A stretch of 63,246 bases of DNA, counting the filler. It is 7 parts of 7 records of this genome, joined end to end, with 100 filler letters (N's around TTAATTAATTAA, not from the genome) between each part and the next. Parts side by side here need not be neighbours in the genome. Positions count along the whole stretch, not along the records: positions 28,506 to 42,693 come from SRR31156797_34077; 6 more parts are not named here. The stretch is one strand, 5' to 3'. Positions within the stretch are counted from its first letter, which is position 1. The number at the start of each line of letters is the position of its first letter. Below the pieces are notes generated by a model. That model did not search any database. It saw only the letters and a list, made by a program, of their open reading frames with translations, and had not been told where the DNA came from. The translations under genes and the position numbers were made by a program. Shown here piece by piece: positions 12,571 through 54,929 of the stretch.

Positions 12571-12576
12571 AATTAA

Positions 12577-12834
12577 TTAATGCGCGTGACCATGGTCATG
12601 GTCATGATCGTGATCGTGATCGTGATGTTCTTCTTTTGTTGTTGTGCTGCTGCTATCGCTAACAACAAACTCTTCCTGCTCGGTGTGGTCATGTCCGTGA
12701 TCATGGTTATGGTCATGGGTTTCTGCACCATGCTCATGATCGTGGCTTTCTGTTTTTTGAGTACCAGAATTGCAGGAAGCCGCCATAAAAGCTAAATAAA
12801 CTGAGAACATCAATAAATACATGAATCGCTTCAT
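12577..12834 (-). CDS. Small His-rich lipoprotein (putative metal-binding)
   Basis: MKRFMYLLMFSVYLAFMAASC lipobox followed by HDHEH, HDHNHDHGHDH and HHDHDHDHDHDHGHAH tracts. Confidence 0.75.
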   Translation of the reverse strand: MKRFMYLLMFSVYLAFMAASCNSGTQKTESHDHEHGAETHDHNHDHGHDHTEQEEFVVSDSSSTTTKEEHHDHDHDHDHDHGHAH

Positions 12835-12900
12835 AATAACTGACATTTATATTCGCAAAAGCGAATGGGTTAAAAAAAATAACTATTGTTTTCCTAATGT

Positions 12901-13353
12901 TTAGGCAATAGAGGGAGGAGCCCGCAGGCCTGTAGCCCCGGGTTCAAATATAATTGGGATTTGAAATGGTAAATCCGCAAATCGAATTAAATCCAGATCG
13001 GGTGATTCTGGTATTGATGTATTGGATATTGAATATAAAACCGTTATTAAAGGAATGTTTACCGACAAATTTTTATTCAATTCAATTCTTAAATAATCGA
13101 AATCATTTGCTGATGATATATGCTGATGAAAAGGGAATGAATGATTATGTGCCTTTTTTGAGTCACTAGTATGTTTGTGTTGATGATGATCAGCGTCATG
13201 GTGTTGATGGGAATCTTTGTCTTGATGTGAATGATGCGTTGCTGGATTGATATAATCTACATCATAGTCGTGATGATGATGTGGTATCATCTCATGACTT
13301 AGAACAACCATAAACGATAGTAATAATGATATGATGTAAATATTATTTTTCAC
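12901..13353 (-). CDS. His-rich leader protein with N-terminal hydrophobic segment and C-terminal LRAPP motif
   Basis: GTG start, hydrophobic stretch then PHHHH, His-rich middle, ends GATGLRAPPSIA*; first gene of the efflux cluster. Confidence 0.75.
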   Translation of the reverse strand: MKNNIYIISLLLSFMVVLSHEMIPHHHHDYDVDYINPATHHSHQDKDSHQHHDADHHQHKHTSDSKKAHNHSFPFHQHISSANDFDYLRIELNKNLSVNIPLITVLYSISNTSIPESPDLDLIRFADLPFQIPIIFEPGATGLRAPPSIA

Positions 13354-13358
13354 AAGGG

Positions 13359-13720: not shown

Positions 13721-13820
13721 NNNNNNNNNNNNNNNNNNNNNNNNNNNNNNNNNNNNNNNNNNNNTTAATTAATTAANNNNNNNNNNNNNNNNNNNNNNNN
13801 NNNNNNNNNNNNNNNNNNNN
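13721..13820. other. Artificial contig spacer 2
   Basis: N-run with TTAATTAATTAA. Confidence 0.99.
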
Positions 13821-28405: not shown

Positions 28406-28505
28406 NNNNNNNNNNNNNNNNNNNNNNNNNNNNNNNNNNNNNNNNNNNNTTAATTAATTAANNNNNNNNNNNNNNNNNNNNNNNNNNNNNNNNNNNNNNN
28501 NNNNN
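28406..28505. other. Artificial contig spacer 3
   Basis: N-run with TTAATTAATTAA. Confidence 0.99.
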
Positions 28506-28728
28506 CGTCGCCGTGGAAACCGGTCTTGTGGGAGCAAGCTTCTCTACCAACCTACTGGCGTCCAGAAGCTATGTGGAGATGGTGGGGCAGGCGCCCTGAA
28601 CGTACTGGCAAAAGTCTAGAAACCGGCTGCCGCCAGGGAAAAGATTCCATCGGCGGCAATCGATCATCCGCTATACAGGAGATTGGAGATTCCTTTAATA
28701 AAAAACATCCCTGGAGTATAATTCCGTC

Positions 28729-29769
28729 ATGAGTAAAAGAGTCTCTCTCCAGGAGATAGCCGATTCGTTAGGAATATCGCGGGGAACCGTCGACAGGGCC
28801 ATCCATAACAGAGGAAGGATTAATCCCGACACCAGGAACAGGGTCCTGGAAGAGGCCAGACGGCTGGGGTATATAGACAGAAAGATTGAATCCTTTCTGC
28901 CTCTGCAGCAGAAAAAAACGATTGAAGTTCTGATGCCCGGAGACGATCCCTTCTTCAATAAAATTGAGGAGGGACTCCGAAGGGCCGTCGATAGCGGACC
29001 TTCCGGTTTTTCCATAAGGATCAGTCATATAGCCCTGGAGGAACCGGGTGCCGAAAAAGAAAGACTGGAAGAAATTCTGAAGGCTCCCGGTGAAGTCAAC
29101 GCCGTCATCATCGTTCCCTCCGACAGAGACCGCCTCAACTCATCCATTTCCAGACTCGAGCGGAAGGGGATTCCCGTGGTCACGGTCAACACGGATGCCC
29201 CACGGAGCGGCCGCTCCGTTTTTATAGGCCAGGATCTTTATGCCTCCGGACGGGTTGCCGGTGAAATACTCCTGCAGATAAGCCATGGTCCGATTCTTGT
29301 GCTGAGCGGTTTTGAAAGGATCTGGGCTCATGAAGAGAGACTCAGGGGATTTTTCGATATCTGCAGGGAAAAGGGCCGGGACACAGAGCTTCTGGGCCCC
29401 TACTTTATGCATGACAAGATCGCACGCGCCTATTCGATTCTATCCGAGAACATTGGAAAGTACAGCGCGGTTTACTCTGTCAGCGGTCAGGCCACAGAGG
29501 GTGCCGGAAGCTTTCTTGCCGCAAACAAACTGGATATCCCCCTTGTCGGCTATGACTGCAGTGAAACGAACAGAAAACTCCTCAAGGCCGGGGCCGTGAG
29601 ATCTCTCATATTTCAGTCTCCCGAACTACAGGGGTATCTGGCAGTCAGATGGCTGATCAGATATCTGAGCGACGGCACTCCTCCTGGAAATGAGGGTATC
29701 CAGGCTCCCATCGATGTCTACTTTCGGGAGAATATCGACTTCTTCAGAAATCGTACAGAACTTTTTTAA
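28729..29769 (+). CDS. LacI-family transcriptional regulator
   Basis: SLQEIADSLGISRGTVDRAIHNR HTH plus periplasmic-binding-fold sugar domain (FIGQD.Y.SG..AG). Confidence 0.9.
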   Translation: MSKRVSLQEIADSLGISRGTVDRAIHNRGRINPDTRNRVLEEARRLGYIDRKIESFLPLQQKKTIEVLMPGDDPFFNKIEEGLRRAVDSGPSGFSIRISHIALEEPGAEKERLEEILKAPGEVNAVIIVPSDRDRLNSSISRLERKGIPVVTVNTDAPRSGRSVFIGQDLYASGRVAGEILLQISHGPILVLSGFERIWAHEERLRGFFDICREKGRDTELLGPYFMHDKIARAYSILSENIGKYSAVYSVSGQATEGAGSFLAANKLDIPLVGYDCSETNRKLLKAGAVRSLIFQSPELQGYLAVRWLIRYLSDGTPPGNEGIQAPIDVYFRENIDFFRNRTELF

Positions 29770-29817
29770 TCTGATTTGCGCAAGCAGCCCTCCGTAATGG
29801 ACATTTTGAATTCCAGA

Positions 29818-29883
29818 TGCGTGCAAAAGAACGCTTGACAAGCCGAAAACTGGGCTGATATCATATTGCGTGCATTTGAACGC
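29818..29883 (+). promoter_or_regulatory. Sigma70 promoter bracketed by two operator copies
   Basis: TGCGTGCAAAAGAACGC (29818-29834), TTGACA (29835-29840), TG-n-TATCAT (29856-29864), TGCGTGCATTTGAACGC (29867-29883). Confidence 0.7.
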
Positions 29884-29901
29884 AAACAGATAGGAGATCA
29901 T

Positions 29902-31077
29902 ATGACCGGAAGAGAGCGAATGCTAAGCGTTTTGAACGGAAAGCGAGCGGACCGGGTTCCTGTCACCCTGTTTATTCAGGGCCAGGGCCACTTTATTACC
30001 CAGGTCAATCCCGACACGGATCCCTGGGATTTTATCAGCATTCAGAAAAACGTCATCGACTATCAGAAAAGCCTTGGACTGGACGTCCATGCGCGCATGC
30101 TTTTTTTTAATCCCCGCAAGCCCGTATTCGCCCATCTTGGGCAGTTGAACGTGGATGTTCAGACTGAGAACTGGGAAGTGAAACACCGGGAGGAGAAGAA
30201 CGGAAACACAACCCTCCATAAATATGAGATAAAGACACCCGACGGTATCCTGAAGCAGACCTTTTCCATCAATGAGCTCAGACCCAAAACCTATATGTAC
30301 GCATGCACGGAGAAACCGATAAACGGCCCCGAAGATCTGAAGATCGCCATGAAGTACGAACCGGACTATTCGGATGAGACCAAGAATGAGATGAAGAAGA
30401 ACGTGGCTGCGGTGAAGGCCGAGGTTGGAGATTCGGGCGTCCTGTCCGCATGGACCAACGGCGGACTGTTCAACAATATTTCCGGATTCATCGATCATGA
30501 AACCCTGTACTCCATCTTTCTCCTTGATCCGGAATACTACAGCGATCTGATGGCCTTTGCAAAAAAGAGGGTCTTTGATTTCACAGACGCCATCATCCAG
30601 ACAGGCATAGACGCACTGTGCGTTGGAGGAAATGTTGCGGGAGGCTTCCTGGGAGAGAACTGCTTTGCCGAGTATGTCCGTCCCTATGAAATGGAGTACA
30701 TATCCCATATCCAGGACCAGGGAAAGCCGGTGATCTACCACAACTGCGGCGACGTTATGAATCTTGTGGAGCCCTACAAGAAAATGGGGATCAAGAATAT
30801 TGAGCCCTTCAGCCCGCCCCCCCTCGGCGACGGAGACCTTGATCTGCTGGCGTCCAGGATGCATGACGAATTCACGGTTACCGGCGGCGTGGATCAGGTC
30901 AATGTGATTCAGAAGGGAACGGTTAAGGATGTTGAGAGGATAACTCTCGAGACCTTGAACAAGGGTAAGAAACTGGACCGCTATATACTGCAGAGCGCAG
31001 ACTTTCTCGAGTACGATACGCCTCTGGAAAACGTTGAGGCCTTTGCCCGGACAGGATTGGCGAACGCCGAATACTAA
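29902..31077 (+). CDS. Uroporphyrinogen decarboxylase / MtaA-CmuA methyltransferase superfamily protein
   Basis: MTGRER...L.GK..DRVPV, TPDG.L, YHNCG, GGVDQ; AGGAG RBS. Confidence 0.82.
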   Translation: MTGRERMLSVLNGKRADRVPVTLFIQGQGHFITQVNPDTDPWDFISIQKNVIDYQKSLGLDVHARMLFFNPRKPVFAHLGQLNVDVQTENWEVKHREEKNGNTTLHKYEIKTPDGILKQTFSINELRPKTYMYACTEKPINGPEDLKIAMKYEPDYSDETKNEMKKNVAAVKAEVGDSGVLSAWTNGGLFNNISGFIDHETLYSIFLLDPEYYSDLMAFAKKRVFDFTDAIIQTGIDALCVGGNVAGGFLGENCFAEYVRPYEMEYISHIQDQGKPVIYHNCGDVMNLVEPYKKMGIKNIEPFSPPPLGDGDLDLLASRMHDEFTVTGGVDQVNVIQKGTVKDVERITLETLNKGKKLDRYILQSADFLEYDTPLENVEAFARTGLANAEY

Positions 31078-31135
31078 AAGTGCAAAAAACAAGGACCGGC
31101 AGCCAGCCGGTCCGAAGGTCGGGATCGCCCCGCGT

Positions 31136-32326
31136 TCAGCCTGGACATGATTCGGTATCGAGGCCGTAATCCTTCCTGAACTCCCGTCTGCCAGCTATTT
31201 CATACCGTCTGCGTTTTATCCGTTCCAGATCCAGAGGATAGGAGCCGTAGTCATGCACTGTGGCGTACATGGTCTCTATATTCAACAGAGGAATCTTGTC
31301 ATGAACTTCGCTGGAAGATCCGATGAACAGTTTTCCTGAGGGTCCTATCCTCTCAATCAGTTCCAGCGTTTCATCCTCCACATCAAAGCGGTTGCCGAAT
31401 GGAAGGGTCTCTTCACAGCATACGTTACCGAAAAGGTACTTGTCCGGCCAGTCATTGTGAATCTCAAAGATATCGTTACAGCCGCAGCGCTCTATCGGAT
31501 TGAGTCCTTCCGCATTAAACTTTCCCTTCTCCAGAATGAGATCCAGCAGAGGCCCGTATCGCCCGTCGGTATGAAACAGGAAAGCCCCGCCCTTTGCCCT
31601 TATGGGCTCAGCGATTCTCATCCAGCGGTTAAGACAGTTCCCTTCAATCCATTGCGGCGAGAATATAGGGCCGTTGGAACCGGCCATATCCTCTCCCATA
31701 AACTGCAGAGGCGGCGTATCGCTATCTGCATAGATATTTGTGAGCGCCGCCGAATAGGCTGTCGTACAGTCCAGAATATGGTCTATCAGTTCCGGTGCAT
31801 CATAGAGGATCAAAGAGAAGAGCTCCAGGTCGACGTAGGTGTAGGCATCGCACAGCGGTCCTTCGACACAGCCGATATAAACGCGGTCATGGGCAGCGAA
31901 TCTGGACGTCACATTCTGCAGATGGGGAGTGAACCACTCCCTGATCTCATCTTCTTTCGGAACAGAGGGCATATTCTTCTCTAATCCAGGCAGATCGGCA
32001 AAAGGACGCTTCGAAATCCAGGCGGTGTCGCCTCCCTGCTCCACCTCCCAGCAGGAGGGATCCACTCCCATAAATCGAATCCAGTTATCAACCTTGTGTC
32101 TCATCCAGTGATCCACCGGATCATGAGTGAAGCGGGTTATATCCACCCCTATTCCCTTCAGAGCCCTGGCATTGATATCCAGTAGCTCATCGGGGGAGTA
32201 GTTCTGATCGTCCCTGTATCCGCCGTATGCGCGAAGCACTTCCGTATTATCAATAAGGTCATAGGTCATGATACGATCAACGGCCTGTCCCTTCAGGGTT
32301 CTGGTCATACGTTCGAGATTTGTCAT
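31136..32326 (-). CDS. URO-D / methyltransferase superfamily protein
   Basis: MTNLER.....G..VDR, LYDAPEL, GEDMAGSNGPIFSP, FHTDG, LNPIE, LFGNV. Confidence 0.78.
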   Translation of the reverse strand: MTNLERMTRTLKGQAVDRIMTYDLIDNTEVLRAYGGYRDDQNYSPDELLDINARALKGIGVDITRFTHDPVDHWMRHKVDNWIRFMGVDPSCWEVEQGGDTAWISKRPFADLPGLEKNMPSVPKEDEIREWFTPHLQNVTSRFAAHDRVYIGCVEGPLCDAYTYVDLELFSLILYDAPELIDHILDCTTAYSAALTNIYADSDTPPLQFMGEDMAGSNGPIFSPQWIEGNCLNRWMRIAEPIRAKGGAFLFHTDGRYGPLLDLILEKGKFNAEGLNPIERCGCNDIFEIHNDWPDKYLFGNVCCEETLPFGNRFDVEDETLELIERIGPSGKLFIGSSSEVHDKIPLLNIETMYATVHDYGSYPLDLERIKRRRYEIAGRREFRKDYGLDTESCPG

Positions 32327-32396
32327 AATTTTGTTCCTGTCAATTACTGGGATGGAAGAATTTGCCGGGTTCGGACGATCCCGGCAAAAGGAAGAT

Positions 32397-33377
32397 CTAG
32401 TTTTTAGTATTCACCTGTTTGAAACGGTCTATCAGAACGGCGATCAGAAGAATGAGTCCGCGAACGACATACTGGTAGAAGGTGGGTATGTTCATCAGGT
32501 TCATGGCATTCTGTACGGTACCCATGATCAGAACCCCCACGATGGCGCCCTGTATCGGAGCGACACCGCCGGACAGAGACACTCCGCCCAATACACAGGC
32601 AGAGATAACGTCCAAAGAGAAACCAACCGAGGTATTGGGCTGCCCGCTGGTCATTCTGGATGCCAGGACGACGCCGGCGAAACCGGCCATCATTCCCTGG
32701 AGCGTGAAAATCAGGATCTTGATTTTATCCACCGCCACGCCGGCGAGACGGGTCGCCTCCATATTTCCGCCCATGGCCAGAGTGTTCTTACCGTAGGAAG
32801 TATTGTTCAGCAGAACTCCGAAGACGACGAAGCAGACGATCGTAATCCAGATGGGATTGGGAATTCCCAGAAGCTGTCCGTTGCCCAGAGAAAAGAAGCG
32901 CATATCTGACACCCCGACAGCACTGCCGCCCGAAACGATAAAAGCCAGCCCCCTGACGATCTGAGCCGACGCCAGGGTCGTGATCAGAGCGTTGATTCCT
33001 GCTTTGGCAATTATGATACCATTGACAAGGCCGATAAATCCGCCGCCCAGGATACCCATGACGATTCCGAAAACGATGCTTCCCGTCGCATTGATTACCA
33101 CAGCCGCCGTTACACCGGCAAAGGCGACGATGTTTTCAACGGACAGATCGAAGTCTCCGGATGCGAGACAGAAGAGCATGGTACAGGCCACCATGCCCAC
33201 CATTGATACGGACAGCCCCAGACCTATCATATTTCTCCAGGTAAAGAAGTAAGGAACAAAGATTGAAAGGGCTATAAATAGCAGGATAAAGATCAGCAGC
33301 ATCCCGGAGTTGTCCCACAGGTGCCGAATCCCCTTCAAAATCTGATTCTCCGGTTTCAATGTTTTTGTATTCTCCAT
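32397..33377 (-). CDS. araH: L-arabinose-type ABC permease AraH
   Basis: ACTMLFCLASGDFDLSV, INALITTLA, SRMTSGQP, VISACVLGGVSL.GG closely follow AraH. Confidence 0.85.
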   Translation of the reverse strand: MENTKTLKPENQILKGIRHLWDNSGMLLIFILLFIALSIFVPYFFTWRNMIGLGLSVSMVGMVACTMLFCLASGDFDLSVENIVAFAGVTAAVVINATGSIVFGIVMGILGGGFIGLVNGIIIAKAGINALITTLASAQIVRGLAFIVSGGSAVGVSDMRFFSLGNGQLLGIPNPIWITIVCFVVFGVLLNNTSYGKNTLAMGGNMEATRLAGVAVDKIKILIFTLQGMMAGFAGVVLASRMTSGQPNTSVGFSLDVISACVLGGVSLSGGVAPIQGAIVGVLIMGTVQNAMNLMNIPTFYQYVVRGLILLIAVLIDRFKQVNTKN

Positions 33378-34910
33378 TTATTTTTCCTTTCCTTTTTCAG
33401 CCGATGTTTCCTCACCGGCTTTGTCCGGTAGAGCTTTGCCTAAAATGGCTTCTTCCGAATAGTCGTTTTTATCGAAAGAGCCGACGATCTCCCCTTCTCT
33501 CATAATGATCATACGGTCGGAAACCCCCATGACCTCGGGCAGGTCGCTGGAAATGCAAATTATCGATTTGCCCTCTTCGGCGAGCTTATACATCAACTGA
33601 TAGATCTCGTTTTTCGTTCCCACATCGATTCCTCTGGTCGGCTCATCCATGATGAGGACATTTACGTCTTCAGCCAGCCAGCGGGCGAGGATTACTTTCT
33701 GCTGATTCCCACCAGAAAGGCTTCCCACCCGGTTCTCCCTGCTGGGGGTCTTGATCTGAAGGGTGTCGATAAAGGAGTCTGTCGTTTTCTGCTCCGTTTT
33801 TTTATCAAGAAAGAAACCGGCCTTCATGCTGTGCCTTCTGACACTGATATTGATGTTCTCATCAACGCTTCTGATGGGAATGATTCCGTCATCCTTCCTG
33901 TCTTCGGGGCAGAAGAAGATTCCATTGTCAATGGCATCCCGGGGCGACTGGATACGGACTTCCCTTCCGTCCAGCAAGATACTCCCCTCGCTATGCTTCT
34001 CTGCGCCGTAGAGCAGCCTCATCAGTTCGGAGCGCCCTGCTCCCACCAGTCCGAAGAATCCCAGGATCTCCCCCTTTCTCAATTCGAAGCTGGCCGGCTT
34101 TCTCAAGCCCGGACCGGCGATCTCTCTAGCGTTCAGAACCGTACAGCCCAGATCACGCTTCCTATAGGAGTAAACGTCCCTGATATCCCTACCCACCATG
34201 CGACTGACCAAAAGATCATGGCTGACATTCTTCATTTCCTGAAATGTCTCGATTTTTCGTCCGTCCCGAAATACAGTCACCGAATCGCAGATTTTGAAGA
34301 TCTCTTCCATTCTATGGGATACATAGATTACAGATTTCCCATTGGCTTTCAGGTTATTGATGATATCAAACAGACGGATTGTCTCCTTATCCGAGAGGGA
34401 GCTGGTCGGTTCATCAAAAGCAATAATATCCGCATTATGGAGCAGCGCCTTTGCGATTTCGATCATCTGTCTTTGGCCGATAGGAAGCTCTTTGATCTTC
34501 CTGTGTGGATCTATTTCTTCCAGTATATAGCTGAGTTCTTCACTGGCTATTGAGTTCATTTCTTTAAAGTCAATCAAGCCGGACTTTTTCAAAGGAAAAT
34601 GCCCCAGCAGCAGATTCTCCGCAACAGTCATCTCAGGGACGAGATTGAGTTCCTGGTAAATAATGGCCACACCTGCATCAAGGGCGTCTCTGGTTCCCTG
34701 AAAATCGTGGGGAATCCCGTCGATGATGACTTTTCCTTCGGACGGAAAGTAAGCTCCGCTGAGGATTTTCAGCAGAGTCGACTTTCCGGCACCGTTCTCG
34801 CCTATCAGGCCCCGCACTTCTCCGCGCTTCACTTCGAAAGAGACTTCGTCCAGGGCTTTCACACCGGGAAAGCTTTTTGAAACAGACTGAAATTGTAAAT
34901 AAGGTGTCAT
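33378..34910 (-). CDS. araG: L-arabinose-type ABC ATPase AraG (two fused NBDs)
   Basis: FPGVKAL, GENGAGKSTL, IIYQEL..VPEMTVAEN, AFDEPTSSLS, LSGGNQQK, DEPTRGIDVG. Confidence 0.88.
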   Translation of the reverse strand: MTPYLQFQSVSKSFPGVKALDEVSFEVKRGEVRGLIGENGAGKSTLLKILSGAYFPSEGKVIIDGIPHDFQGTRDALDAGVAIIYQELNLVPEMTVAENLLLGHFPLKKSGLIDFKEMNSIASEELSYILEEIDPHRKIKELPIGQRQMIEIAKALLHNADIIAFDEPTSSLSDKETIRLFDIINNLKANGKSVIYVSHRMEEIFKICDSVTVFRDGRKIETFQEMKNVSHDLLVSRMVGRDIRDVYSYRKRDLGCTVLNAREIAGPGLRKPASFELRKGEILGFFGLVGAGRSELMRLLYGAEKHSEGSILLDGREVRIQSPRDAIDNGIFFCPEDRKDDGIIPIRSVDENINISVRRHSMKAGFFLDKKTEQKTTDSFIDTLQIKTPSRENRVGSLSGGNQQKVILARWLAEDVNVLIMDEPTRGIDVGTKNEIYQLMYKLAEEGKSIICISSDLPEVMGVSDRMIIMREGEIVGSFDKNDYSEEAILGKALPDKAGEETSAEKGKEK

Positions 34911-34943
34911 GTTAAAACTCTTTACATTCTATTGATTTGAGAA

Positions 34944-34965
34944 GCGGGAGAATGACTTCTCCCGC
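34944..34965 (-). other. Stem-loop after the binding-protein gene (mRNA stabiliser or partial terminator)
   Basis: GCGGGAGAA-TGAC-TTCTCCCGC between araF and araG. Confidence 0.5.
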
Positions 34966-34996
34966 ATCCTGATTCCAGCGGATCCAGGATTGAAGA

Positions 34997-35992
34997 TTAG
35001 CCGTTTTCTTTGAGCTTCTGCTCGTAGTTCTCCCGGTTCATCATAACGGCGGTTGTCCATGTGGTTGCAGGAGGAGCGACACCTTCGGTTATCCATTTAT
35101 AGACATATTCGCTGGTCTCATATCCATGTCTTCTGGGAGAGATCAGCGCTGTCGCATAGAAACCGGTTACTTCGGATTTGGCGAATTCGGCAGTAGCGGT
35201 TCCGCTTCCCCCGATTCCGACCGCGCAGATATCCGCTGCGGCAAAGCCGTTCCCTTCGCAAGCTCTTGTTCCGCCCATGGCCGCCTCATCATTCAGACCA
35301 CCGATCAGCCAGTGTTTGATCTGCGGATTCTTGGTGATGGTGATATTGGCAGCGTTGAATCCGCCTTCGGTGTCAGTCGTTTTTTCAGGAGACTCGAAGA
35401 TATAGGCTTCCGCAAATCCCTTTTCAAGAAGGGCATCGGTCATTCCGTTAGTTCTGTCCACGGCCGTGGGCAATTCGTTGAAACTGATTCTCATGAAACC
35501 AGTCTCTTCCTGCTTCCAGCCTCTGGCGTCCATCTGCTCTTTCATTGTGTAGCCGACCTGCTTGCCGATTTCATATGCGGAAATACCCATATGAGGAACC
35601 TCTTCCATGGGATTGCCGTCGGCGCCCACGAAGCGGTCATCCACGCTCATAACCTTAAGTCCGTTGGCTTTCGCCTTGGCCATGATGGCAGGGCCAAGTT
35701 TAACATCGGGTGTGCAGATCACGAATCCCTGCGCTCCCTGCGCCGCGATATTGTCTATGGCGGAGAGAACCTTCTCACCGTCGGGCGTTCCGATTTCCAG
35801 AACCTTGAAACCGTACTTTTCACCGGCTTCCTGAGCGAATTTCCACTCGTTCTGGAACCAGGGCTCTTCCGGCATTTTGACTAGGAATCCGACTTTAACA
35901 TCTTTGGCGTTACCGCCCTCCTGAGCTCCGTTTGCAAACAGCATCCCCGTGAAAAGCGAAAGACAGATTGCAAGGATTAATCCTTTTTTCAT
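34997..35992 (-). CDS. araF: L-arabinose-type ABC substrate-binding protein AraF
   Basis: GFLVK.PEEPWFQ.EW.FA, PDGEKVL.AID, GA.GFVICTPD.KLG, NEL.TA..RT.G; LFANG.QE N-terminus is spirochaete-like. Confidence 0.88.
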   Translation of the reverse strand: MKKGLILAICLSLFTGMLFANGAQEGGNAKDVKVGFLVKMPEEPWFQNEWKFAQEAGEKYGFKVLEIGTPDGEKVLSAIDNIAAQGAQGFVICTPDVKLGPAIMAKAKANGLKVMSVDDRFVGADGNPMEEVPHMGISAYEIGKQVGYTMKEQMDARGWKQEETGFMRISFNELPTAVDRTNGMTDALLEKGFAEAYIFESPEKTTDTEGGFNAANITITKNPQIKHWLIGGLNDEAAMGGTRACEGNGFAAADICAVGIGGSGTATAEFAKSEVTGFYATALISPRRHGYETSEYVYKWITEGVAPPATTWTTAVMMNRENYEQKLKENG

Positions 35993-36035
35993 AAATAACT
36001 CCTTTAGATCTTATAGATCGATTTCCTCCTATAGA

Positions 36036-36051
36036 TACAAATAACATGCCA
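36036..36051 (-). promoter_or_regulatory. Sigma54 (-24/-12) promoter for araFGH
   Basis: Minus strand TGGCAT-GTTAT-TTGTA versus consensus TGGCAC-N5-TTGCW, about 45 bp upstream of araF; divergent sigma54 activator adjacent. Confidence 0.65.
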
Positions 36052-36147
36052 TCTCATGGTAAAAATCGCAACAATTTTGTAATTTTTTGCATAGAATAAA
36101 GATAAGGATGATCATGTTCTGAGATCATAGTTCTCTCCCACGGAAAA

Positions 36148-36198
36148 TGGGAAACAGGCATTTCTCCTTTCCCATTGGATTGGGAAAAAAGTTTCTCA
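36148..36198. promoter_or_regulatory. Candidate enhancer (UAS) sites for the NtrC-type activator
   Basis: TGGGAAA-caggca-TTTCTCC and TGGGAAA-aaag-TTTCTCA imperfect palindromes 100-150 bp upstream of the sigma54 site. Confidence 0.4.
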
Positions 36199-36259
36199 CC
36201 TTTTTCTGATAGATCGTATTTTCTTGTCAAAAAATAAAAAAACCCATTATTATCCTTTT

Positions 36260-37579
36260 ATGAGAAAACGAATTCTGATTGTGGATGATGAAGAGCAGCT
36301 TTGCATCAGCCTTTCCCGCCTGCTGGAAGCCAATGGCTACGAGCCTTTTTACACGACACAAGCGGAAATGGCCGTAACTCTTCTGAAAGAGCACCCGTCA
36401 GATCTTGTGATAACGGATCTGAAGATGCCGGGACTCTCCGGAATCGACTTGATCCGTGAGATTCGCATCCGCTTCAGAGATATTCCGATTCTGATGGTTT
36501 CCGGATATGCGTCTGTAGACAATGTCGTACGGGCCATGCGTTACGGAGCCTTGAACTTCTTTGAAAAGCCTGTCCGCTTTGCAGAACTCTTAAAGGATAT
36601 CGATGCCCTGTTCCCGGAGGAGGAGCGGGAAACAGCGCTGGCATCGCCCCGGAGGAGACTTGTATCATTCAATAAAAAAATGCAGGAGAAGATCGGCATG
36701 CTGAATAAGGCGGCGCCGACGGACGCCCCTGTGCTCATTACCGGAGAGTCGGGAACGGGCAAGGAACTGGCCGCATCCATTATTCATTCCCAGAGCGTCC
36801 TGAAGGACGGTCCTTTTATAAAGCTGAACTGTGCGGCGATTCCCGACACTCTATTGGAAAGTGAACTCTTCGGTCATGAGAAGGGAGCCTTTACAGATGC
36901 GTTGGATTCACGGCCCGGGAAATTTGAGATTGCGGAAGGCGGAACCATCTTCCTTGATGAGATAGGGGACATGAGCATTAAAACCCAGGCGAAGCTGCTG
37001 AGAGTACTGCAGGAAAAAGAGTTTGAACGGGTTGGCTCCCACACGATACGCAAGATGAATGCCCGGGTAGTAGCCGCCACAAACAGAGAGCTTCAGGAGC
37101 AGATCCGGAAAGGGCTTTTCCGAGAGGATCTGTACTACAGGCTCTCGGTGATTCAGATAGAACTCCCGGCCCTAAGAGAGAGGCGAGAAGACATACTCCC
37201 TCTCTTTCGCTTATTCCTGGATGAGTTCTGCTCAAAATACAGTAAATCAATCGCAGGCATGGACCTGGAGACAGAGACTCTGTTTCTGACTCACGACTGG
37301 CCAGGGAACATACGGGAACTGAGAAACACGATTGAGCGTATGGTGATATTCTGCGATCACAATAAACTGACGGTAGACCTCCTTCCCGAGCAGTACAAGC
37401 GCTATCCGGCAGATGGTAACCATACTCCCCTCAGACAGGCTTCCGACAGTATTACGAGAGAGCTGATTCTGGAATCCTTAGAAAAAACAGGCGGCAGCAG
37501 AAGCAAAACAGCAGAACTTCTCGGAGTGACCAGAAGAACGCTGTATAACAAGATAAAGAAACTGAATATTGAGATTTGA
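36260..37579 (+). CDS. NtrC-family sigma54-dependent response regulator
   Basis: Receiver (ILIVDDE, TDLKMPG), AAA+ (GESGTGKE, ELFGHEKGAFTDA, FLDEIG, FREDLYYRL, WPGNIREL), Fis-type HTH; ATG 36260. Confidence 0.95.
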   Translation: MRKRILIVDDEEQLCISLSRLLEANGYEPFYTTQAEMAVTLLKEHPSDLVITDLKMPGLSGIDLIREIRIRFRDIPILMVSGYASVDNVVRAMRYGALNFFEKPVRFAELLKDIDALFPEEERETALASPRRRLVSFNKKMQEKIGMLNKAAPTDAPVLITGESGTGKELAASIIHSQSVLKDGPFIKLNCAAIPDTLLESELFGHEKGAFTDALDSRPGKFEIAEGGTIFLDEIGDMSIKTQAKLLRVLQEKEFERVGSHTIRKMNARVVAATNRELQEQIRKGLFREDLYYRLSVIQIELPALRERREDILPLFRLFLDEFCSKYSKSIAGMDLETETLFLTHDWPGNIRELRNTIERMVIFCDHNKLTVDLLPEQYKRYPADGNHTPLRQASDSITRELILESLEKTGGSRSKTAELLGVTRRTLYNKIKKLNIEI

Positions 37580-39400
37580 ATGGACTTTAAAAAACGGCAA
37601 CCTTTGCTTCAGATGCAGAATATCCGCTACTCCTATGGCTCTTTGAAGGCGCTGACAGGGATTGATTTTGATCTGTATCCTGCGGAAATCCATGCCGTAT
37701 CAGGAGACCACGGCTCAGGTAAGTCATCTCTGATCAAACTGCTCAGCGGATCACTGAGCAATCAGAACGGGATCATCAGAATAAAGGGCAGGCAGATCGG
37801 ATCCCTGACCCCTTCCCTTGCGGTACAGCTGGGTATCGGTTTCGTTTCCCAGGATGAGGAAATAATCCCAAACGGGACGCTGCTGGATAATGTGTACCTC
37901 GGACAGTTTCCGCCGATCCTAATGGGGAAGAAAAAAGCGGCGATGCTGCAGCACTGCCGTGATCTTTTTCAATACTACGGCTTTGAAGAGGATCCGATGA
38001 TGAGGACTTCCGATCTCACTCCCACCAGACGGCAAATGCTCCCCTTCCTGAGGGCCCTTTCTCAGGGGACGGACATTCTGATTCTGGATGAGATGTCCCA
38101 GAGAACGACCCCGGAAGAGCAGGAACATGTATACAGGATCCTGCAGAAATGCCGGGATTCCGGAATGGGGATTATTTACGTTACATCCAATATTGACGAG
38201 ATATTCAGGATTGCCGACAGGGTGACTATTCTTCACAAGGGAGTTCGCCGCAGCACGGAAGAGGTCGGCAGAGTAGACAGAGCCCGTCTGGTCAATCTGG
38301 CCTTTAACTTTGCCATGGACAGAAACGATGGCGATTCTCCCGTTAATCATGAGGTTCTTCTCCTCAATCGCTATGATAAGAGAATCATCAATGACATGCC
38401 CCAGGGGATCATGATCATTTCTCCAGGGAACGAGATACAGGACATCAATACGGCCGCCGCCAGGATACTGGAGTGCCGTGTAGAGGACATGTCCGGAGCC
38501 GATATGTGGGAATACCTGATGGCTCTACCCATTGAGAAGAAAGAGGAAATTCAAAGTGCCATACTGGAAAGGCGAAAAGGTCTGTGGCAGAGTCTGAAAT
38601 TTGTCCGTAACAAAAGATTGAAAATACGAGTGTCTCCCTTGGGAGAGGAAGGGGATTTGAGGCAGGGCGTTCTTCTTTTCCTTGAGGACTTCTCATCAGA
38701 CTATGAAACGCAGGAGTATCTCCAGCAGGCGGAGAAATTCGTTTCCACAGCAGAGATGGCTGCGGGTGTGGCTCATGAAGTGAACAACCCTCTGGGAATC
38801 ATTCAAAACTACCTGGATCTGCTCCAGCTGGAATCTTTGAACGAAAATGCAATAGAGTGTGTAAACCGGATTCAATCAGAGCTGAGTCGTATTGTAGAGA
38901 TCATAAGCAGTCTCCTCTCCTTTTCAAGGGCAGGAGTAAGCCCTCTGAAAGCCCTGAGCATTCACGATTTGCTGGATGAGATCGTGATTCTGATGGGCCA
39001 TAAGCTGAAACACAGGGAGATCCGCCTTCATAAGCAGTATATGGGAGAGAGTGTTTTCGTCGAGGGACATGAAAACAAACTGAAGCAACTCTTTCTCAAT
39101 CTCTTAAACAATGCCGTAGAGGCGGTCCTGAACAAAGGAGAGATCAGTCTCTCAACCGAAGCCGGCAGAGATTACGTAGACATTCATATAAAGGATAACG
39201 GAAACGGAATACCCGAAGATGTAAAGGAGCAGATTTTTTCTCCCTTTTTCACAACAAAGGTAACAAAGACCAATACGGGTCTGGGACTCTCGATATGCCA
39301 GCATATAGTAGAATCCTACAACGGAAGTATCTCGGTGCAGAGCGCCCCGGGTGAGACGACGACCTTCACCGTAAGGCTTCCAAGGCCATCCTCTTCCTAG
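37580..39400 (+). CDS. Soluble histidine kinase with N-terminal sugar-ABC ATPase-like domain and PAS domain
   Basis: N-terminus: KAL.GIDF.L..EIHAV.GDHGSGKSSL, FVSQ, ILILDE, IIYVTSN.DEIFRIADRVTIL. Then PAS (IINDMPQGI..INTAA..IL), AHEVNNPL H-box, QLFLNLLNNA, DNGNGI, FSPFFTTK, GLGLSI. No TM segment visible. Confidence 0.88.
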   Translation: MDFKKRQPLLQMQNIRYSYGSLKALTGIDFDLYPAEIHAVSGDHGSGKSSLIKLLSGSLSNQNGIIRIKGRQIGSLTPSLAVQLGIGFVSQDEEIIPNGTLLDNVYLGQFPPILMGKKKAAMLQHCRDLFQYYGFEEDPMMRTSDLTPTRRQMLPFLRALSQGTDILILDEMSQRTTPEEQEHVYRILQKCRDSGMGIIYVTSNIDEIFRIADRVTILHKGVRRSTEEVGRVDRARLVNLAFNFAMDRNDGDSPVNHEVLLLNRYDKRIINDMPQGIMIISPGNEIQDINTAAARILECRVEDMSGADMWEYLMALPIEKKEEIQSAILERRKGLWQSLKFVRNKRLKIRVSPLGEEGDLRQGVLLFLEDFSSDYETQEYLQQAEKFVSTAEMAAGVAHEVNNPLGIIQNYLDLLQLESLNENAIECVNRIQSELSRIVEIISSLLSFSRAGVSPLKALSIHDLLDEIVILMGHKLKHREIRLHKQYMGESVFVEGHENKLKQLFLNLLNNAVEAVLNKGEISLSTEAGRDYVDIHIKDNGNGIPEDVKEQIFSPFFTTKVTKTNTGLGLSICQHIVESYNGSISVQSAPGETTTFTVRLPRPSSS

Positions 39401-40335
39401 ATCCGGAGCACATCCATATCGATCCGCCACTCCATCTCTGAATCTGCTTCTATCAGCGATCTATGTCCCCAGCGTTCGGCCGCAACCGGATCATCCATGG
39501 GAGCGCTTGCCGGTTCGAGAGCCAGATTATACTGATCCCCCCAGCCCCCTTCATTGATCCAGATCCCCAGACAGGGAAGGATATCCTGCGAATAGTCCAT
39601 GCGGATCTCCAGACCCGCCTTTTTCCGGCAGAGAGAGCACCAGCCTTCTTCATTCGTTTCTGAGAAATAGTACTTCTTATAGCCGTCGTTTTTGGGTTCC
39701 ACCGTAGAGAGGTCGATCAGGGCATCCCCTCCGGCCGGGATTTCAGAGAAGGCATATTCCTTTCCGTATTCAGGAAGCCTCTTCGAGGGAACGGCATTCA
39801 CCACTCGTCTCATCCCGCCGGGAACCCGGATATAATCGCCCGGATCGACATTGAACAAGGGATGGGTCGCATAGACGAATGCCATGGGAAAGGGCGTCGG
39901 ATTTTCAAGCCGGTAACCGAGGCGGACCGTCGAGTCTCTGAGGGAGACGTTTTTTTTCAGCCTATAGGGCAGACGGACGCCCGAAACCTCAAGCTCGACA
40001 CAATCATCTCGCATCAGGACATCCCAGGGAAGGGACCAGAGCTCTCCGTGATCGGGAAGCAGAGCCCCCTTCCAGGGCTCATCGGGGTAGTGGCACTCAT
40101 TGATATTCGGAAACATATCATCAAAACCCGCGGCCTCTCCCTTGGAAAAGGGCTGTCCGTACTCTGCGGCCTGAAACCTCTCGCCCGGATTCTGCCACAG
40201 CAGCTCCCTCCCATCGGGCAGAAAAATCAATGAGGCGATCTTCCCACCCGATTCGGGAACCAGCGTCAGGCGGAGCTTTTCATTCTCCAGCAAGACCGCA
40301 GCTTTATCCTTGTATCGGTCTGTATAGATCTTCAT
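39397..40335 (-). CDS. Aldose 1-epimerase / galactose-mutarotase-fold protein
   Basis: LENE.L....P..GGKI.SL, G.DDMFP, LPDHGELW..PW, HPLF, GIW.N.GGW..YNLALEP. Confidence 0.75.
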   Translation of the reverse strand: MKIYTDRYKDKAAVLLENEKLRLTLVPESGGKIASLIFLPDGRELLWQNPGERFQAAEYGQPFSKGEAAGFDDMFPNINECHYPDEPWKGALLPDHGELWSLPWDVLMRDDCVELEVSGVRLPYRLKKNVSLRDSTVRLGYRLENPTPFPMAFVYATHPLFNVDPGDYIRVPGGMRRVVNAVPSKRLPEYGKEYAFSEIPAGGDALIDLSTVEPKNDGYKKYYFSETNEEGWCSLCRKKAGLEIRMDYSQDILPCLGIWINEGGWGDQYNLALEPASAPMDDPVAAERWGHRSLIEADSEMEWRIDMDVLRI

Positions 40336-41624
40336 TCTCGATCCCCGGTCCGCTTGAGATTATACTCACGAACCTCATCAAACATGGCGATCACATTCTC
40401 GACAGGTGTATTGCCCAGGATGTTGTGAATGGTGTTGAAGATAAATCCGCCCCGTCCGGAGAAGAGCTCCAGACGGCTCCTTACCTCTTGTCGCACCTCA
40501 TCGACCGTTCCGAAGGGAAGGGTTTTCTGGGTATCCACACCCCCTCCCCAGAAGCTCAGGCGGTCTCCGAATTTATCGACCAGGCCCTCTCCTTCCATGC
40601 CGGCCGCGCTCAGCTGTACGGGATTGAAAACATCGAATCCGCACTCCGCAAACTCGGGGAGAAAATTGGCGATAGAGCCGCAGCAGTGGAAGTGGGTAAA
40701 CCAGTTCGTATGCTTATGCACCCAGTCGTTCAACCGGACGTAATGATCCTTATAGAACTCGCGGAAGTGGTCAAGAGAGATCATCTCTCCCGTCTGACTG
40801 CCGAAATCCGTGCAGCTCAGGTTGATGGTGGTGATCCTGTCTCCCACAGCCTGCCTGATGATCTCCAGGTTCTTCAGGGCCAACTCGGTCTGCCAGGAGA
40901 ACAGCTCCTTCAAATAATCAGGATAGAGGTAGTGGGCCATATACCAATCATCCAGTTTCCGGATTCCCCGGGGATTCTTCTCATAGGGACCGGGAATGAT
41001 TGCCGCGTCCCCGAAACCGCCTCCGTTGAAATTGAAGTGAATCGCGCAGTCCGTCTCTTCATACAGCTTCCGGCAGTTTCTTCCGATCTCCTGTGCATCC
41101 TCATCCGAGAAAACCCCGTACAGATTCCGGAAGTCACGCAGGGCGTCCATATCATCCTCATCCACAGCGGGAGCCCGGTCGATATTGTCGAAGAAAGATC
41201 CCCCCGCCGGAAGCTGCACGCTGGGCTCTGCCGTACGGTCTCCCTGGGGATAGACTGCGATACTGCCATCCGCTCTTCGGTCGAACTGGAAATCACCGGG
41301 CATCCTGACGGGAATTCCCGTCCCGTCTATCCCGGGAAAAGTCCAGTCCGTCCAGCTCCCGAAGCGGGTGCCGAACAGGGTGACAGGGCACCATAAGGGT
41401 ACGACGTCGACGCCCAGAGCCTTTCTCAGGTCTTCATCCACAGAGCCCAGCATCTGAAAGGGCTCACAGATGTCGATCGCCTTCTCCTTCAGCCCGAGCT
41501 CCCGTCGGAGCCCGTAAAGCACCAGCGCGCTGATCCCTGTCTGCCCCGATCCTCCCAGATCCACCGGAACCCGATCCGGCTGCCGATGGTTCAGAGCTGT
41601 TTCAACCCGTTCTCTTGATGTCAT
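40332..41624 (-). CDS. URO-D / methyltransferase superfamily protein
   Basis: MTSRERV..ALNHRQPDRVPVDLGG, DFGSQ, HCCGS, NPVQ.SA.GM, FWGGGVDTQ.TLPFGT, GGFIFN.IHNI. Confidence 0.85.
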   Translation of the reverse strand: MTSRERVETALNHRQPDRVPVDLGGSGQTGISALVLYGLRRELGLKEKAIDICEPFQMLGSVDEDLRKALGVDVVPLWCPVTLFGTRFGSWTDWTFPGIDGTGIPVRMPGDFQFDRRADGSIAVYPQGDRTAEPSVQLPAGGSFFDNIDRAPAVDEDDMDALRDFRNLYGVFSDEDAQEIGRNCRKLYEETDCAIHFNFNGGGFGDAAIIPGPYEKNPRGIRKLDDWYMAHYLYPDYLKELFSWQTELALKNLEIIRQAVGDRITTINLSCTDFGSQTGEMISLDHFREFYKDHYVRLNDWVHKHTNWFTHFHCCGSIANFLPEFAECGFDVFNPVQLSAAGMEGEGLVDKFGDRLSFWGGGVDTQKTLPFGTVDEVRQEVRSRLELFSGRGGFIFNTIHNILGNTPVENVIAMFDEVREYNLKRTGDRE

Positions 41625-41767
41625 CTGTTTCCCTTCCTATACAAAATTATCTTCCAGAGGAATACCCAGCCATAGTATTTAACTTGCTGTATCCATGCTA
41701 AAAGACAGAGAACCTGAAGTAAATGCCATCATTTGCACTATTTGATGGATTATCTTATCCTTTGTAT

Positions 41768-42625
41768 ATGAAAAAAAGAGAAGGGTTTCGGAATCAGACG
41801 CTTATCGTTGTACCTCCCCACTTTTACAAAACGGAAGACCCCTTGATCAGCTCACTCTATTTAACGGACATCGGCTACTTCCCCCGAGCCGAGGATCATC
41901 TGGTCTCCCGCAATCGGGGTAGCGACAGTATCATCCTCCTCATATGCACAGACGGCTCGGGCTGGGCGGAATTAGACGGCTCTTATATTGAGTTGAATGA
42001 GGGGCAGGCCGTCCTTGTCCCCCGCGGCTGTCCCCATCGCTACGGCAGCAGCGAGAAGGGCTTCTGGAAGCTCTTCTGGATTCACTTCCAGGGAGAGCTG
42101 GCCGATGAGATCGCCTCAAGGCTCAATGAGAACGGAGACCGGGAGCCAGGCTTTTCTCTTCGGATGGGCGATGAAAGCCGGCGGCTCTTTAATTCGATTT
42201 GCACGGATCTTCTGAGGGGAATCAACAGTGGAAACTACGAGCTGGCCTGCGGGAGGCTCAGGCACCTCTTCGGCTCTCTGATAGAGGACGGCAGATCCGG
42301 CTCCCTGACGATTAACCGTATCATTCGCGAGTGCATCAGCATCATGGAGAACCACCTGGACTCATCCCTCACCCTGGGCCGGCTGAGCCGTGAGACATCC
42401 CTTACCCCTCCCTACCTGTGCAGGGTATTCAAGCAAAAGACGGGCCGCTCTCCCATAGACCACTACAACAGGATGAAGGTCCAGCGGGCATGTTTTCTTC
42501 TGGACATGACAACTCTGCAGATCGGTGAAATCAGCAGGAGTCTGGGGATCGGGGATCCCTACTATTTCTCACGCATGTTCAAGAGTATTATGGGCCGCTC
42601 TCCAAGGGATTACCGCAACAGATAG
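41768..42625 (+). CDS. AraC-family transcriptional regulator
   Basis: K.EGF, LYLTDIGYFP.A..H cupin domain, WIHF.G, DPYYFSRMFK..MG.SP..YR. Confidence 0.92.
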   Translation: MKKREGFRNQTLIVVPPHFYKTEDPLISSLYLTDIGYFPRAEDHLVSRNRGSDSIILLICTDGSGWAELDGSYIELNEGQAVLVPRGCPHRYGSSEKGFWKLFWIHFQGELADEIASRLNENGDREPGFSLRMGDESRRLFNSICTDLLRGINSGNYELACGRLRHLFGSLIEDGRSGSLTINRIIRECISIMENHLDSSLTLGRLSRETSLTPPYLCRVFKQKTGRSPIDHYNRMKVQRACFLLDMTTLQIGEISRSLGIGDPYYFSRMFKSIMGRSPRDYRNR

Positions 42626-42693
42626 GTCCGGCTCATTCCCTTTTCAATCCCAGTTTCCTGATTCGGCTCTGCAGGGTCGTCGGCTTCATATCC

Positions 42694-42793
42694 NNNNNNN
42701 NNNNNNNNNNNNNNNNNNNNNNNNNNNNNNNNNNNNNTTAATTAATTAANNNNNNNNNNNNNNNNNNNNNNNNNNNNNNNNNNNNNNNNNNNN
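42694..42793. other. Artificial contig spacer 4
   Basis: N-run with TTAATTAATTAA. Confidence 0.99.
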
Positions 42794-48489: not shown

Positions 48490-48589
48490 NNNNNNNNNNN
48501 NNNNNNNNNNNNNNNNNNNNNNNNNNNNNNNNNTTAATTAATTAANNNNNNNNNNNNNNNNNNNNNNNNNNNNNNNNNNNNNNNNNNNN
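48490..48589. other. Artificial contig spacer 5
   Basis: N-run with TTAATTAATTAA. Confidence 0.99.
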
Positions 48590-54829: not shown

Positions 54830-54929
54830 NNNNNNNNNNNNNNNNNNNNNNNNNNNNNNNNNNNNNNNNNNNNTTAATTAATTAANNNNNNNNNNNNNNN
54901 NNNNNNNNNNNNNNNNNNNNNNNNNNNNN
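54830..54929. other. Artificial contig spacer 6
   Basis: N-run with TTAATTAATTAA. Confidence 0.99.

Follow-up and report, generated by a model that had tools for sequence, protein, structure and literature searches.

The stretch of DNA analysed here, hereafter the window (63,246 nt, filler included), carries at 37580-39400 on the plus strand a gene for a histidine kinase of 606 amino acids (aa), which lacks any membrane segment and whose input domain resembles the first nucleotide-binding domain (NBD1) of the ATP-binding cassette (ABC) ATPases that drive CUT2 sugar importers. We tentatively read this kinase as part of a two-component system that would control the neighbouring CUT2 importer, encoded by araFGH, by docking on the permease of that importer. 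The window is made of seven contigs placed end to end; the locus lies on the piece from 28506 to 42693, and the other pieces cannot be used as its context.

A nucleotide-binding domain fused to a soluble histidine kinase

The kinase gene and its parts are as follows.

37580..39400 (+), soluble NBD-PAS-HisKA-HATPase_c sensor kinase gene (606 aa; Pfam, NCBIfam)
37580..38284 (+), NBD-like input domain (N-domain), aa 1-235, derived from CUT2 NBD1 (ABC_tran, NCBIfam, BLASTP, Foldseek)
38285..38377 (+), linker between NBD and PAS, aa 236-266, of low model confidence (predicted local distance difference test score, pLDDT, below 50 at residues 240-264)
38378..38689 (+), PAS domain, aa 267-370 (Pfam PAS, E 2.1e-7; also PAS_8 and PAS_4)
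38753..39388 (+), kinase core, with HisKA at aa 392-451 (phospho-acceptor H399) and HATPase_c at aa 497-603 (Pfam)

Besides PAS, the Pfam models found in this single reading frame are ABC_tran at residues 25-172 (E 1.1e-19), HisKA (E 1.3e-13) and HATPase_c (E 5.2e-27). With NCBIfam, residues ~4-247 match the first half of YtfR, MglA, AlsA and AraG (E ~1e-42 to 1e-44), and residues 262-603 match AtoS-like kinases, far below the equivalog cut-off (221 versus 646). The protein has a single NBD rather than a tandem pair, and it reaches 142.7 bits with the AraG equivalog model, for which the cut-off is 689. In BLASTP comparison with the neighbouring AraG, the N-domain is 28% identical to NBD1 over 225 aa (E 8e-29) and 26% identical to the second NBD (NBD2; E 2e-15). 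On the Kyte-Doolittle scale no 19-residue mean exceeds 1.26, whereas the permease AraH reaches 2.81; no segment thus has the strength of a transmembrane helix. The first-pass annotation, made from the sequence alone, had described an ABC-type domain fused in one frame to PAS-HisKA-HATPase, without transmembrane helix, and had drawn a parallel between residues ~1-245 and the first NBD of AraG; all three statements agree with these calls.

The AlphaFold2 model of the kinase has a mean pLDDT of 78. Its NBD is at ~80-94 over residues 10-235 and is followed by a body made of the PAS domain, the dimerisation and histidine phosphotransfer (DHp) helices and the catalytic ATP-binding domain. Foldseek matched the N-domain to LptB, the MacB NBD, MJ1267 and TM1139-type NBDs, with template-modelling scores, normalised on the target, of 0.78-0.86, and the C-terminal half to light-oxygen-voltage (LOV) histidine kinases and ThkA; among the solved chains searched with Foldseek none spans both NBD and kinase. 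A sequence search of the PDB with the N-domain as query returned generic NBDs only. H399 and the residues of the N, G1, F and G2 boxes are invariant in the 45 aligned members of the kinase family (alignment A1), the invariant HATPase_c positions being N507, N511, D539, G541, G543, F553, F556, G567 and G569. The protein can be classed from these features as a soluble HisKA-type kinase with all its catalytic boxes, and autophosphorylation is predicted.

The fusion defines a conserved family

The 120 best homologues listed are 38-79% identical to the kinase and ~600 aa long, and 119 of them combine ABC_tran, HisKA and HATPase_c, the exception being a truncated entry of 494 aa. At source they are named just 'ATP-binding cassette domain-containing protein' or 'AtoS'. 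The five genomes behind the first loci have one to three full-length copies each. A full-length match (E <= 1e-90) was present in at least 14 of 401 sampled genomes of the Spirochaetota, the phylum of genome G002; this survey, in which three candidates were scored per genome, gives a lower bound. Two KSB3/Moduliflexus genomes hold three copies each, and a profile search (E <= 1e-75, four candidates scored per genome) of 301 sampled genomes of the Chloroflexota, the phylum of genome G407, gave no match.

A search for related loci keyed on the kinase core retained 7 full-length family members among 80 loci (L001-L006 and L069). Two others, L055 and L056, proved on inspection to be ordinary kinases and were set aside, and the remaining 71 were not used. 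In L069, a contig from a Spirochaetaceae metagenome-assembled genome, the family member (2646-4453) is split into two overlapping open reading frames (ORFs), 2646-4142 and 4091-4453, which could come from a frameshift or, the coverage of the contig being low, from a sequencing error. For the comparison of gene neighbourhoods we assembled 28 modules, i.e. that of the window plus 27 from 26 loci.

An error of assembly or gene calling that joined a fragment of an ABC ATPase to a kinase gene had to be considered for a window that joins contigs of an assembly of mixed composition. Six spacers of the form N44-TTAATTAATTAA-N44 separate the pieces (6263-6362, 13721-13820, 28406-28505, 42694-42793, 48490-48589 and 54830-54929), and the GC content steps at these joins (~36%, 60%, 51%, 35-45%). 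Since the jumps fall exactly there, the assembly may mix organisms; a reading of the steps as islands or as traces of horizontal transfer was rejected, because the N-TTAATTAATTAA-N spacers lie at exactly the same places. The kinase gene is well inside its contig (28506-42693). A 4428-nt contig from run X2, which belongs to another study, spans 36579-41006 with 15 base differences and no insertion or deletion; a second X2 record spans 31469-36608, both being at least 99% alike to the window. The junction between NBD and PAS is also bridged by a record from X3 (37763-38646) and one from X4 (38297-38530), which brings to three the other studies whose contigs cross it. Run X1, possibly the source sample, was left out of this count. 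These contigs, and the recurrence of the same architecture in 119 of the 120 listed homologues from many assemblies, refute an artefact, to which we give practically no weight. The fusion, for which the first-pass annotation had allowed misassembly or an isolated case, is thus a real and conserved one.

Motifs and origin of the input domain

The motifs quoted in the earlier annotation are all present: the Walker A motif GDHGSGKS (with K48), the Q-loop (Q91), LTPTRRQ at the place of the signature, the Walker B motif ILILDE (D170, E171), and, in the H-loop strand, IIYVTSN, where TSN stands without the His found in VIYVSHR of AraG. To see which of these features are peculiar to the kinase, we aligned the 28 N-domains (the wider set) with both NBDs of the 25 tandem ATPases encoded nearby.

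The CUT2 ATPases are themselves intrinsically asymmetric. Their NBD1 combines a canonical Walker A (GENGAGKST) and an H-loop His, yet has a degenerate signature (LSVGKQQ; LPIGQRQ in the AraG of the window), whereas in NBD2 it is the other way round: Walker A is degenerate (GxxGxGR[ST]E), the H-loop His is missing and the signature is the canonical LSGGNQQ, in 25/25 cases. In the AraG of the window these are, for NBD1, GENGAGKST, LPIGQRQ and an H-loop His and, for NBD2, GLVGAGRSE, LSGGNQQ and no H-loop His. Because the signature of CUT2 NBD1 is already degenerate, the odd signature of the kinase is an inherited trait and not a new loss. LSGGQ is not matched in the window copy, and the motif varies across the family. 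The earlier claim about LTPTRRQ thus stands as to its degeneracy, and falls as to a loss specific to the kinase.

The conservation of the other motifs is uneven. The Walker A Lys is found in all 26 rows of the wider set that hold the region and in 45/45 rows of A1, the Q-loop Gln in 27/28 and 44/45, and the Walker B DE in 24/28 and 45/45; the Glu is missing in four modules (L001, L124, L128 and L129). The H-loop His is retained in only 15/28 N-domains of the wider set and 12/45 rows of A1, and it is gone in the window copy (TSN) and in several separate branches (SQN, TPH/TPN, SSR, TNR, TYR, TSR). The family also has features of its own, namely a His in Walker A (H44; GDH/GEH, against GEN in 25/25 NBD1 rows) and, in the linker region, D233 and Y242, which are conserved in the kinases and not in CUT2 NBD1. 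The persistence of the Lys, the Gln and Walker B next to a variable His suggests that selection acts on nucleotide binding, and that rapid hydrolysis can be dispensed with and has disappeared repeatedly. The description of the sensor as a degenerate ATPase, made in the earlier annotation, therefore fits this copy and not the family, of which only part has lost the His.

A quick maximum-likelihood tree, built without one truncated N-domain row of less than 180 aa, places the N-domains in a single group (27 rows; support by the Shimodaira-Hasegawa-like approximate likelihood ratio test, SH-aLRT, 98) apart from both NBD1 and NBD2, which fits one fusion event followed by diversification. Judging from sequence and tree, CUT2 NBD1 gave rise to the input domain a single time. 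Over 23 paired modules the mean pairwise identity is 0.36 for N-domains and 0.45 for the neighbouring NBD1s. The ratio of N-domain to NBD1 identity depends on the region: 0.61 for the signature, 0.71 for the Q-loop and start of the helical subdomain, 0.85 for Walker B, 0.89 for Walker A and 0.92 for the H-loop strand. Among N-domains, identity is 0.63 in Walker A and 0.50 in Walker B, against 0.18-0.34 in the helical subdomain and Q-loop region.

Gene neighbourhood and sigma-54 wiring

The genes and sites that surround the kinase gene on its contig are listed below.

36224..37579 (+), NtrC-type response regulator with REC, sigma-54 AAA+ and HTH_8 domains (Pfam Response_reg, Sigma54_activat E 4.5e-70, HTH_8)
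34997..35992 (-), AraF-like sugar-binding protein of the periplasm, encoded first in the importer operon (Peripla_BP_1)
33378..34910 (-), AraG, a complete ATPase with two NBDs in tandem (775.9 bits with the NCBIfam AraG equivalog, cut-off 689)
32397..33377 (-), AraH, the importer permease (BPD_transp_2) on which docking is proposed (493.4 bits with the NCBIfam AraH equivalog, cut-off 378)
36036..36051 (-), sigma-54-type -24/-12 element TGGCATGTTATTTGTA (TGGCAT-N5-TTGTA), 44 nt before the araF ATG
36135..36186 (-), dyads TTCCCA-N6-TGGGAA (36169-36186) and TTCCCA-N7-TGGGAG (36135-36153), ~85-135 nt upstream of the -24 element

The regulator gene ends one base before the start of the kinase gene and faces araF-araG-araH (35992-32397, minus strand). 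Its listed start is a TTG, the ATG at 36260 being the likely true start. The loop that would contact sigma-54 reads GAFTDA, a variant of GAFTGA seen in 8 of the 28 regulators, and its best NCBIfam match, AtoC, scores 393 against an equivalog cut-off of 714. An NtrC-type regulator lies directly upstream of the kinase, on the same strand and abutting it, in 27/28 modules, the last module being cut by the end of its contig.

The importer is nearly as constant a neighbour. One adjoins the regulator-kinase pair in 27/28 modules: 23/28 have a tandem-NBD CUT2 ATPase at no more than 6 kb and 26/28 a BPD_transp_2 permease at no more than 8 kb, with binding proteins of the Peripla_BP_4 and Peripla_BP_1 families. 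Two modules (L117:5703-8784 and L130:2623-8901) have importers with single-NBD ATPases of 262-281 aa next to BPD_transp_2 permeases, and in L001 and L116 the end of the contig cuts the module after an ATPase fragment or the permease. When scored with AraG as query, the module transporters range from 334 to 760, a spread which implies that they handle different sugars.

As shown by a scan for TGGCAC-N5-TTGCW (GG at -24 and TG in the -12 box required, score at least 9/11), a -24/-12 element immediately precedes the first gene of the adjacent importer operon, in the same orientation, in 27/28 modules. About 21 of the 29 matches that score at least 10 in 505 kb (both strands) are at such importer-operon sites. 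The element of the window has GT in place of the consensus GC at -12, as does that of L114. The gene for sigma-54, rpoN, is present in 5/5 related genomes searched. Upstream of the element, the two TTCCCA dyads are candidate binding sites for the activator; other loci have different dyads in the same relative place. A scan for sigma-70 promoters and terminators around the locus was not above shuffled sequences (11 versus 7.5 +/- 2.5); a sigma-70-like hexamer pair at 36224-36253, from that same scan, overlaps the listed TTG start of the regulator.

Two points of the earlier annotation are borne out here, namely the position of the kinase directly after an NtrC activator and the orientation of that activator towards a sigma-54 promoter of araFGH; the conservation of the neighbourhood with CUT2 importers, a check proposed there, is seen as well. 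The predicted chain of control, in which the kinase acts on the NtrC-type activator and the activator on the sigma-54 promoter in front of the neighbouring CUT2 importer operon, is well supported.

One locus, L112 (G002:C2:243500-263400; 6506-13356), contains two regulator-kinase pairs back to back and pointing apart, each followed by an importer operon of its own (binding protein, ATPase and permease) that has a separate sigma-54 element. It is a natural pair for the study of specificity.

Does the input domain contact the transporter?

The suggestion in the first-pass annotation that the N-domain plugs into an AraH-type permease was approached in three ways. The docking of NBDs on permeases is, as a general mode, well represented in the PDB, and a phmmer search of the solved structures found no homologue of AraH. 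Complexes of two AraH chains (alignment A2, 59 rows) with the N-domain (residues 1-250, alignment A1) were predicted next to three controls. The interface score ipSAE (interaction prediction score from aligned errors) was 0.57 for the AraH pairing (0.56, 0.57 and 0.58 in separate runs) and 0.00 for the best control, which is weak support. Of 157 solved complexes, 116 passed the mark used, as did 2 of 215 mismatched pairs; scores up to 0.60 comprise only 18 of those 157 and both of the passing mismatches. The runs shared at least 84% of their contacts, with a partner pLDDT of at least 77.

Evolutionary distances were compared in 22 of the 28 modules, after exclusion of L069, with its frameshifted kinase, and of every module lacking the tandem ATPase, the permease or both. 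The distances correlate at r 0.84-0.92 among kinase core, regulator and N-domain (0.92 for kinase core and regulator) and at 0.86-0.90 among the parts of the transporter. Between the two groups, the N-domain correlates with permease, NBD1 and NBD2 at 0.55-0.57, and the kinase core and regulator correlate with the transporter at 0.40-0.47, the rest of the kinase on its own at 0.40-0.46. Once the kinase core is allowed for, the N-domain correlates with the permease at a partial r of 0.35, with NBD1 at 0.44 and with NBD2 at 0.41 (reached in 0/2000 permutations); the reverse one, for the kinase core given the N-domain, runs from -0.01 (permease) to -0.15. This link of N-domain and transporter distances is suggestive only.

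The third approach, which concerned the conservation of the region that would face the permease, was equivocal and speaks neither for nor against docking.

Proposed mechanism and its alternatives

The working model is as follows. The N-domain would bind ATP and hydrolyse it poorly, and the two N-domains of a kinase dimer would dock on the coupling loops of the AraH dimer (AraH2) in the manner of a motor NBD, competing with AraG or standing in for it. When sugar-loaded AraF engages the permease, the N-domains would close, and this closure would be passed on through the linker and the PAS domain to the DHp helices, so that the kinase would phosphorylate the regulator. The phosphorylated regulator would then activate the sigma-54 promoter of araFGH, and a positive feedback would result. 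We regard docking on the permease as the likeliest of the mechanisms weighed, while holding it tentatively, since it is the sole one that covers at once the recruitment of a CUT2 NBD1, its lasting pairing with CUT2 importers of many specificities, and the covariation. A more specific form of it, which seems to us possible and yet doubtful, is that the kinase dimer replaces AraG on some of the AraH2, so that AraF-AraH2-(NBD-kinase)2 would be a dedicated receptor that does not transport; sugar would be sensed without uptake, and the signal would be the ATP-dependent closure of two NBDs impaired in hydrolysis. If such a receptor exists, the repeated loss of the H-loop His and of the Walker B Glu would reflect selection for a long-lived 'closed' signalling state.

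A number of observations weigh against docking. The score of 0.57 falls in a band more often wrong than right unless the guess is likely beforehand, and it could mirror a generic likeness to NBD-transmembrane domain pairs. The distance link may arise from the shared saturation of homologous domains, and the statistic takes no account of relatedness. In the permease-facing region, from the Q-loop to the start of the helical subdomain, the N-domains have a mean pairwise identity of 0.34 against 0.48 for the NBD1s, and the NBD1 pattern LxPxxTVAEN is not retained throughout the kinase family. AraG is complete and above its equivalog cut-off; since the transporter owns such an ATPase, the kinase would have to compete for AraH2 or make use of a sub-pool. 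The EAA-like loop of CUT2 permeases (GGNMEATRLAG at aa 203-213 of AraH, with G203 and G213 invariant in A2) is nearly invariant, which leaves unexplained how a kinase would choose among many permeases. The low model confidence of the NBD-PAS linker at residues 240-264 does not favour a rigid mechanical coupling. Finally, one module alone, L129 (G148:C31, 7662-16130), has no ABC importer at a distance of up to 20 kb. There, the regulator-kinase pair is followed by genes for a LacI regulator, an araB-like (FGGY) and an araD-like (Aldolase_II) protein and by araA; neither the Walker B Glu nor the H-loop His is left in the N-domain, and the sigma-54 element, on the minus strand at 7299-7314, aims at a Big_5/ice-binding-like gene 735 nt away.

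This module without importer sits well with a kinase that never touches a permease. Its N-domain would be an autonomous nucleotide switch, sensing ATP/ADP or dimerising with ATP; the sugar signal would come through the PAS domain, which all members have, or through a soluble partner, and the importer would be merely a regulatory target, whose place next to the regulator accounts for the neighbourhood without any contact. The pattern of conservation is also of the kind expected, the best-kept regions being those that bind the nucleotide (the Walker A and Walker B identities given above), and the permease-facing and signature regions the most relaxed relative to NBD1. This explanation fails to say why a CUT2 NBD1 was recruited, why the association with an importer holds in 27/28 modules across sugar specificities, and why the covariation is in the N-domain and not in the kinase core; the complex prediction, besides, did beat its controls, if weakly. 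We consider it unlikely, though still to be reckoned with. A contact with AraG instead of AraH was also envisaged: with AraG open, the ATP-bound N-domain would pair with the LSGGNQQ of NBD2, and the kinase would be a sensor of flux. The two domains are indeed complementary in their asymmetry, the N-domain having good Walker motifs and a poor signature and NBD2 the reverse, without H-loop His (25/25 with a canonical signature), and the partial correlations with NBD1 and NBD2 exceed that with the permease (0.44 and 0.41 versus 0.35). NBD1 is, however, tethered to NBD2 on the permease, so that intramolecular competition and steric limits would presumably oppose such a pairing, and the single-NBD ATPases of L117 and L130 offer no separate NBD2, all of which makes this alternative improbable.

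Least convincing among the functional readings, and in our view very improbable, is that of a decaying N-domain kept only as a module for dimerisation or stability, with signalling constitutive or set by the expression level of kinase and regulator. The N-domains do evolve faster than the motor NBD1s (0.36 versus 0.45), and the H-loop His is lost in 13/28 and the Walker B Glu in 4/28. Against decay, the Walker A Lys is kept in 26/26 and 45/45 rows, the Gln in 27/28, and H44 is conserved, while the domain is full-length at 38% to 79% identity and across two phyla; this retention points to purifying selection on nucleotide binding.

Comparison with known systems

The input to soluble kinases that lack an obvious ligand-binding domain is often unknown. 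Within known families, the kinase and its regulator have the same composition as AtoS/AtoC and NtrB/NtrC, i.e. a PAS-HisKA-HATPase_c kinase paired with a REC-AAA+-HTH_8 activator of sigma-54. They differ in scores that are far below the AtoS and AtoC equivalog cut-offs (221 versus 646 and 393 versus 714) and in the NBD that serves here as input; AtoS is a membrane protein with a different N-terminus. Compared with CUT2 ATPases (AraG, RbsA, XylG, MglA and YtfR; Transporter Classification 3.A.1.2), the N-domain is homologous to NBD1, has the same fold and shares the Walker A Lys, the Q-loop Gln, Walker B and the degenerate NBD1 signature. It is distinguished from them by being a lone NBD, far below every equivalog cut-off, with a GDH/GEH Walker A and, here, no H-loop His, and by its fusion to PAS and kinase domains.

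In PstSCAB-PhoU-PhoR, DctA-DcuS, MalK-MalT and UhpC-UhpB, how active a separate regulator or kinase is depends on the state of a transporter, and not on the free ligand alone. To our knowledge, these systems all use non-covalent contacts and none has an NBD inside the kinase; we know likewise of no transporter-coupled sensing, be it by Bce, Pst/PhoR or DctA/DcuS, that goes beyond non-covalent pairs. For the Pst/PhoR case, the transporter PstSCAB is treated in PMC12976172, and for DctA-DcuS PMC3892338 places the contact at the cytoplasmic PAS domain. In the Bce modules of Bacillota (BceAB with BceS/BceR), as described in PMC4513084 and PMC10314905, an ABC transporter does the sensing for a kinase that lacks a ligand-binding domain of its own; this kinase switches on the operon of the transporter, and signalling tracks transporter activity. 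BceS is a membrane kinase which touches the permease BceB through its transmembrane helices (PMC10314905). As proposed, the system described here would be like Bce in its transporter-linked kinase and in the induction of a transporter operon. It is unlike Bce in that BceA is a separate protein of a MacB-like exporter for peptide antibiotics, whereas here the ATPase-type domain is built into a soluble kinase and the transporter is a binding-protein-dependent sugar importer (BPD_transp_2/AraH) associated with a sigma-54 activator. CbrA and CrbS of Pseudomonas and Vibrio, which control the use of carbon sources, are fusions of an SLC5 transporter module to a histidine kinase, according to PMC7096432 and PMC5715377. 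In those kinases the fused module is a membrane domain, the permease of a secondary transporter, whereas the present kinase has the cytoplasmic motor domain of a primary (ABC) transporter and lacks any membrane segment.

The open-access literature (PMC, bioRxiv) yielded no account of a fusion between an NBD and a histidine kinase, in line with the first-pass annotation, which knew of no characterised example; a description in a subscription journal is possible. To conclude, transporter-coupled two-component signalling is known, but a transporter motor domain built into the kinase appears unstudied. It would give a clean and genetically tractable case of signalling through the ABC conformational cycle, and would explain the sigma-54 switching of sugar importers in many uncultured Spirochaetota and KSB3 bacteria. 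The repeated loss of residues for hydrolysis, alongside the retention of those for ATP binding, amounts to a natural experiment on what an NBD needs for signalling as opposed to pumping. The modular design (binding protein, permease, NBD-kinase) could also serve in sugar biosensors.

Other features of the window

Scans of the window for tRNA genes and Rfam families gave no match. On a separate contig piece, the interval 204-6214 contains dndB, a dndC of the 3'-phosphoadenosine-5'-phosphosulfate (PAPS) reductase-like type, an SMC-like dndD and dndE, all for DNA phosphorothioation, followed by a gene for an Mrr-type restriction endonuclease.

On the contig of the kinase, the araFGH/regulator/kinase cluster is flanked by three genes of the URO-D family (PF01208), at 29866-31077 (+), 31136-32326 (-) and 40332-41624 (-). 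URO-D-like genes are also found beside two of the related modules (L113:2257-3336 and L006:7212-8468), and in L006 the gene is the first behind the sigma-54 promoter. Convergent with the kinase gene, and overlapping its stop by 4 nt, is an ORF of 312 aa (39397-40335, minus strand), which has no Pfam match at 1e-5; its closest relatives by Atlas features are aldose-1-epimerase-like clusters (score 0.98), a result to be taken as a lead only.

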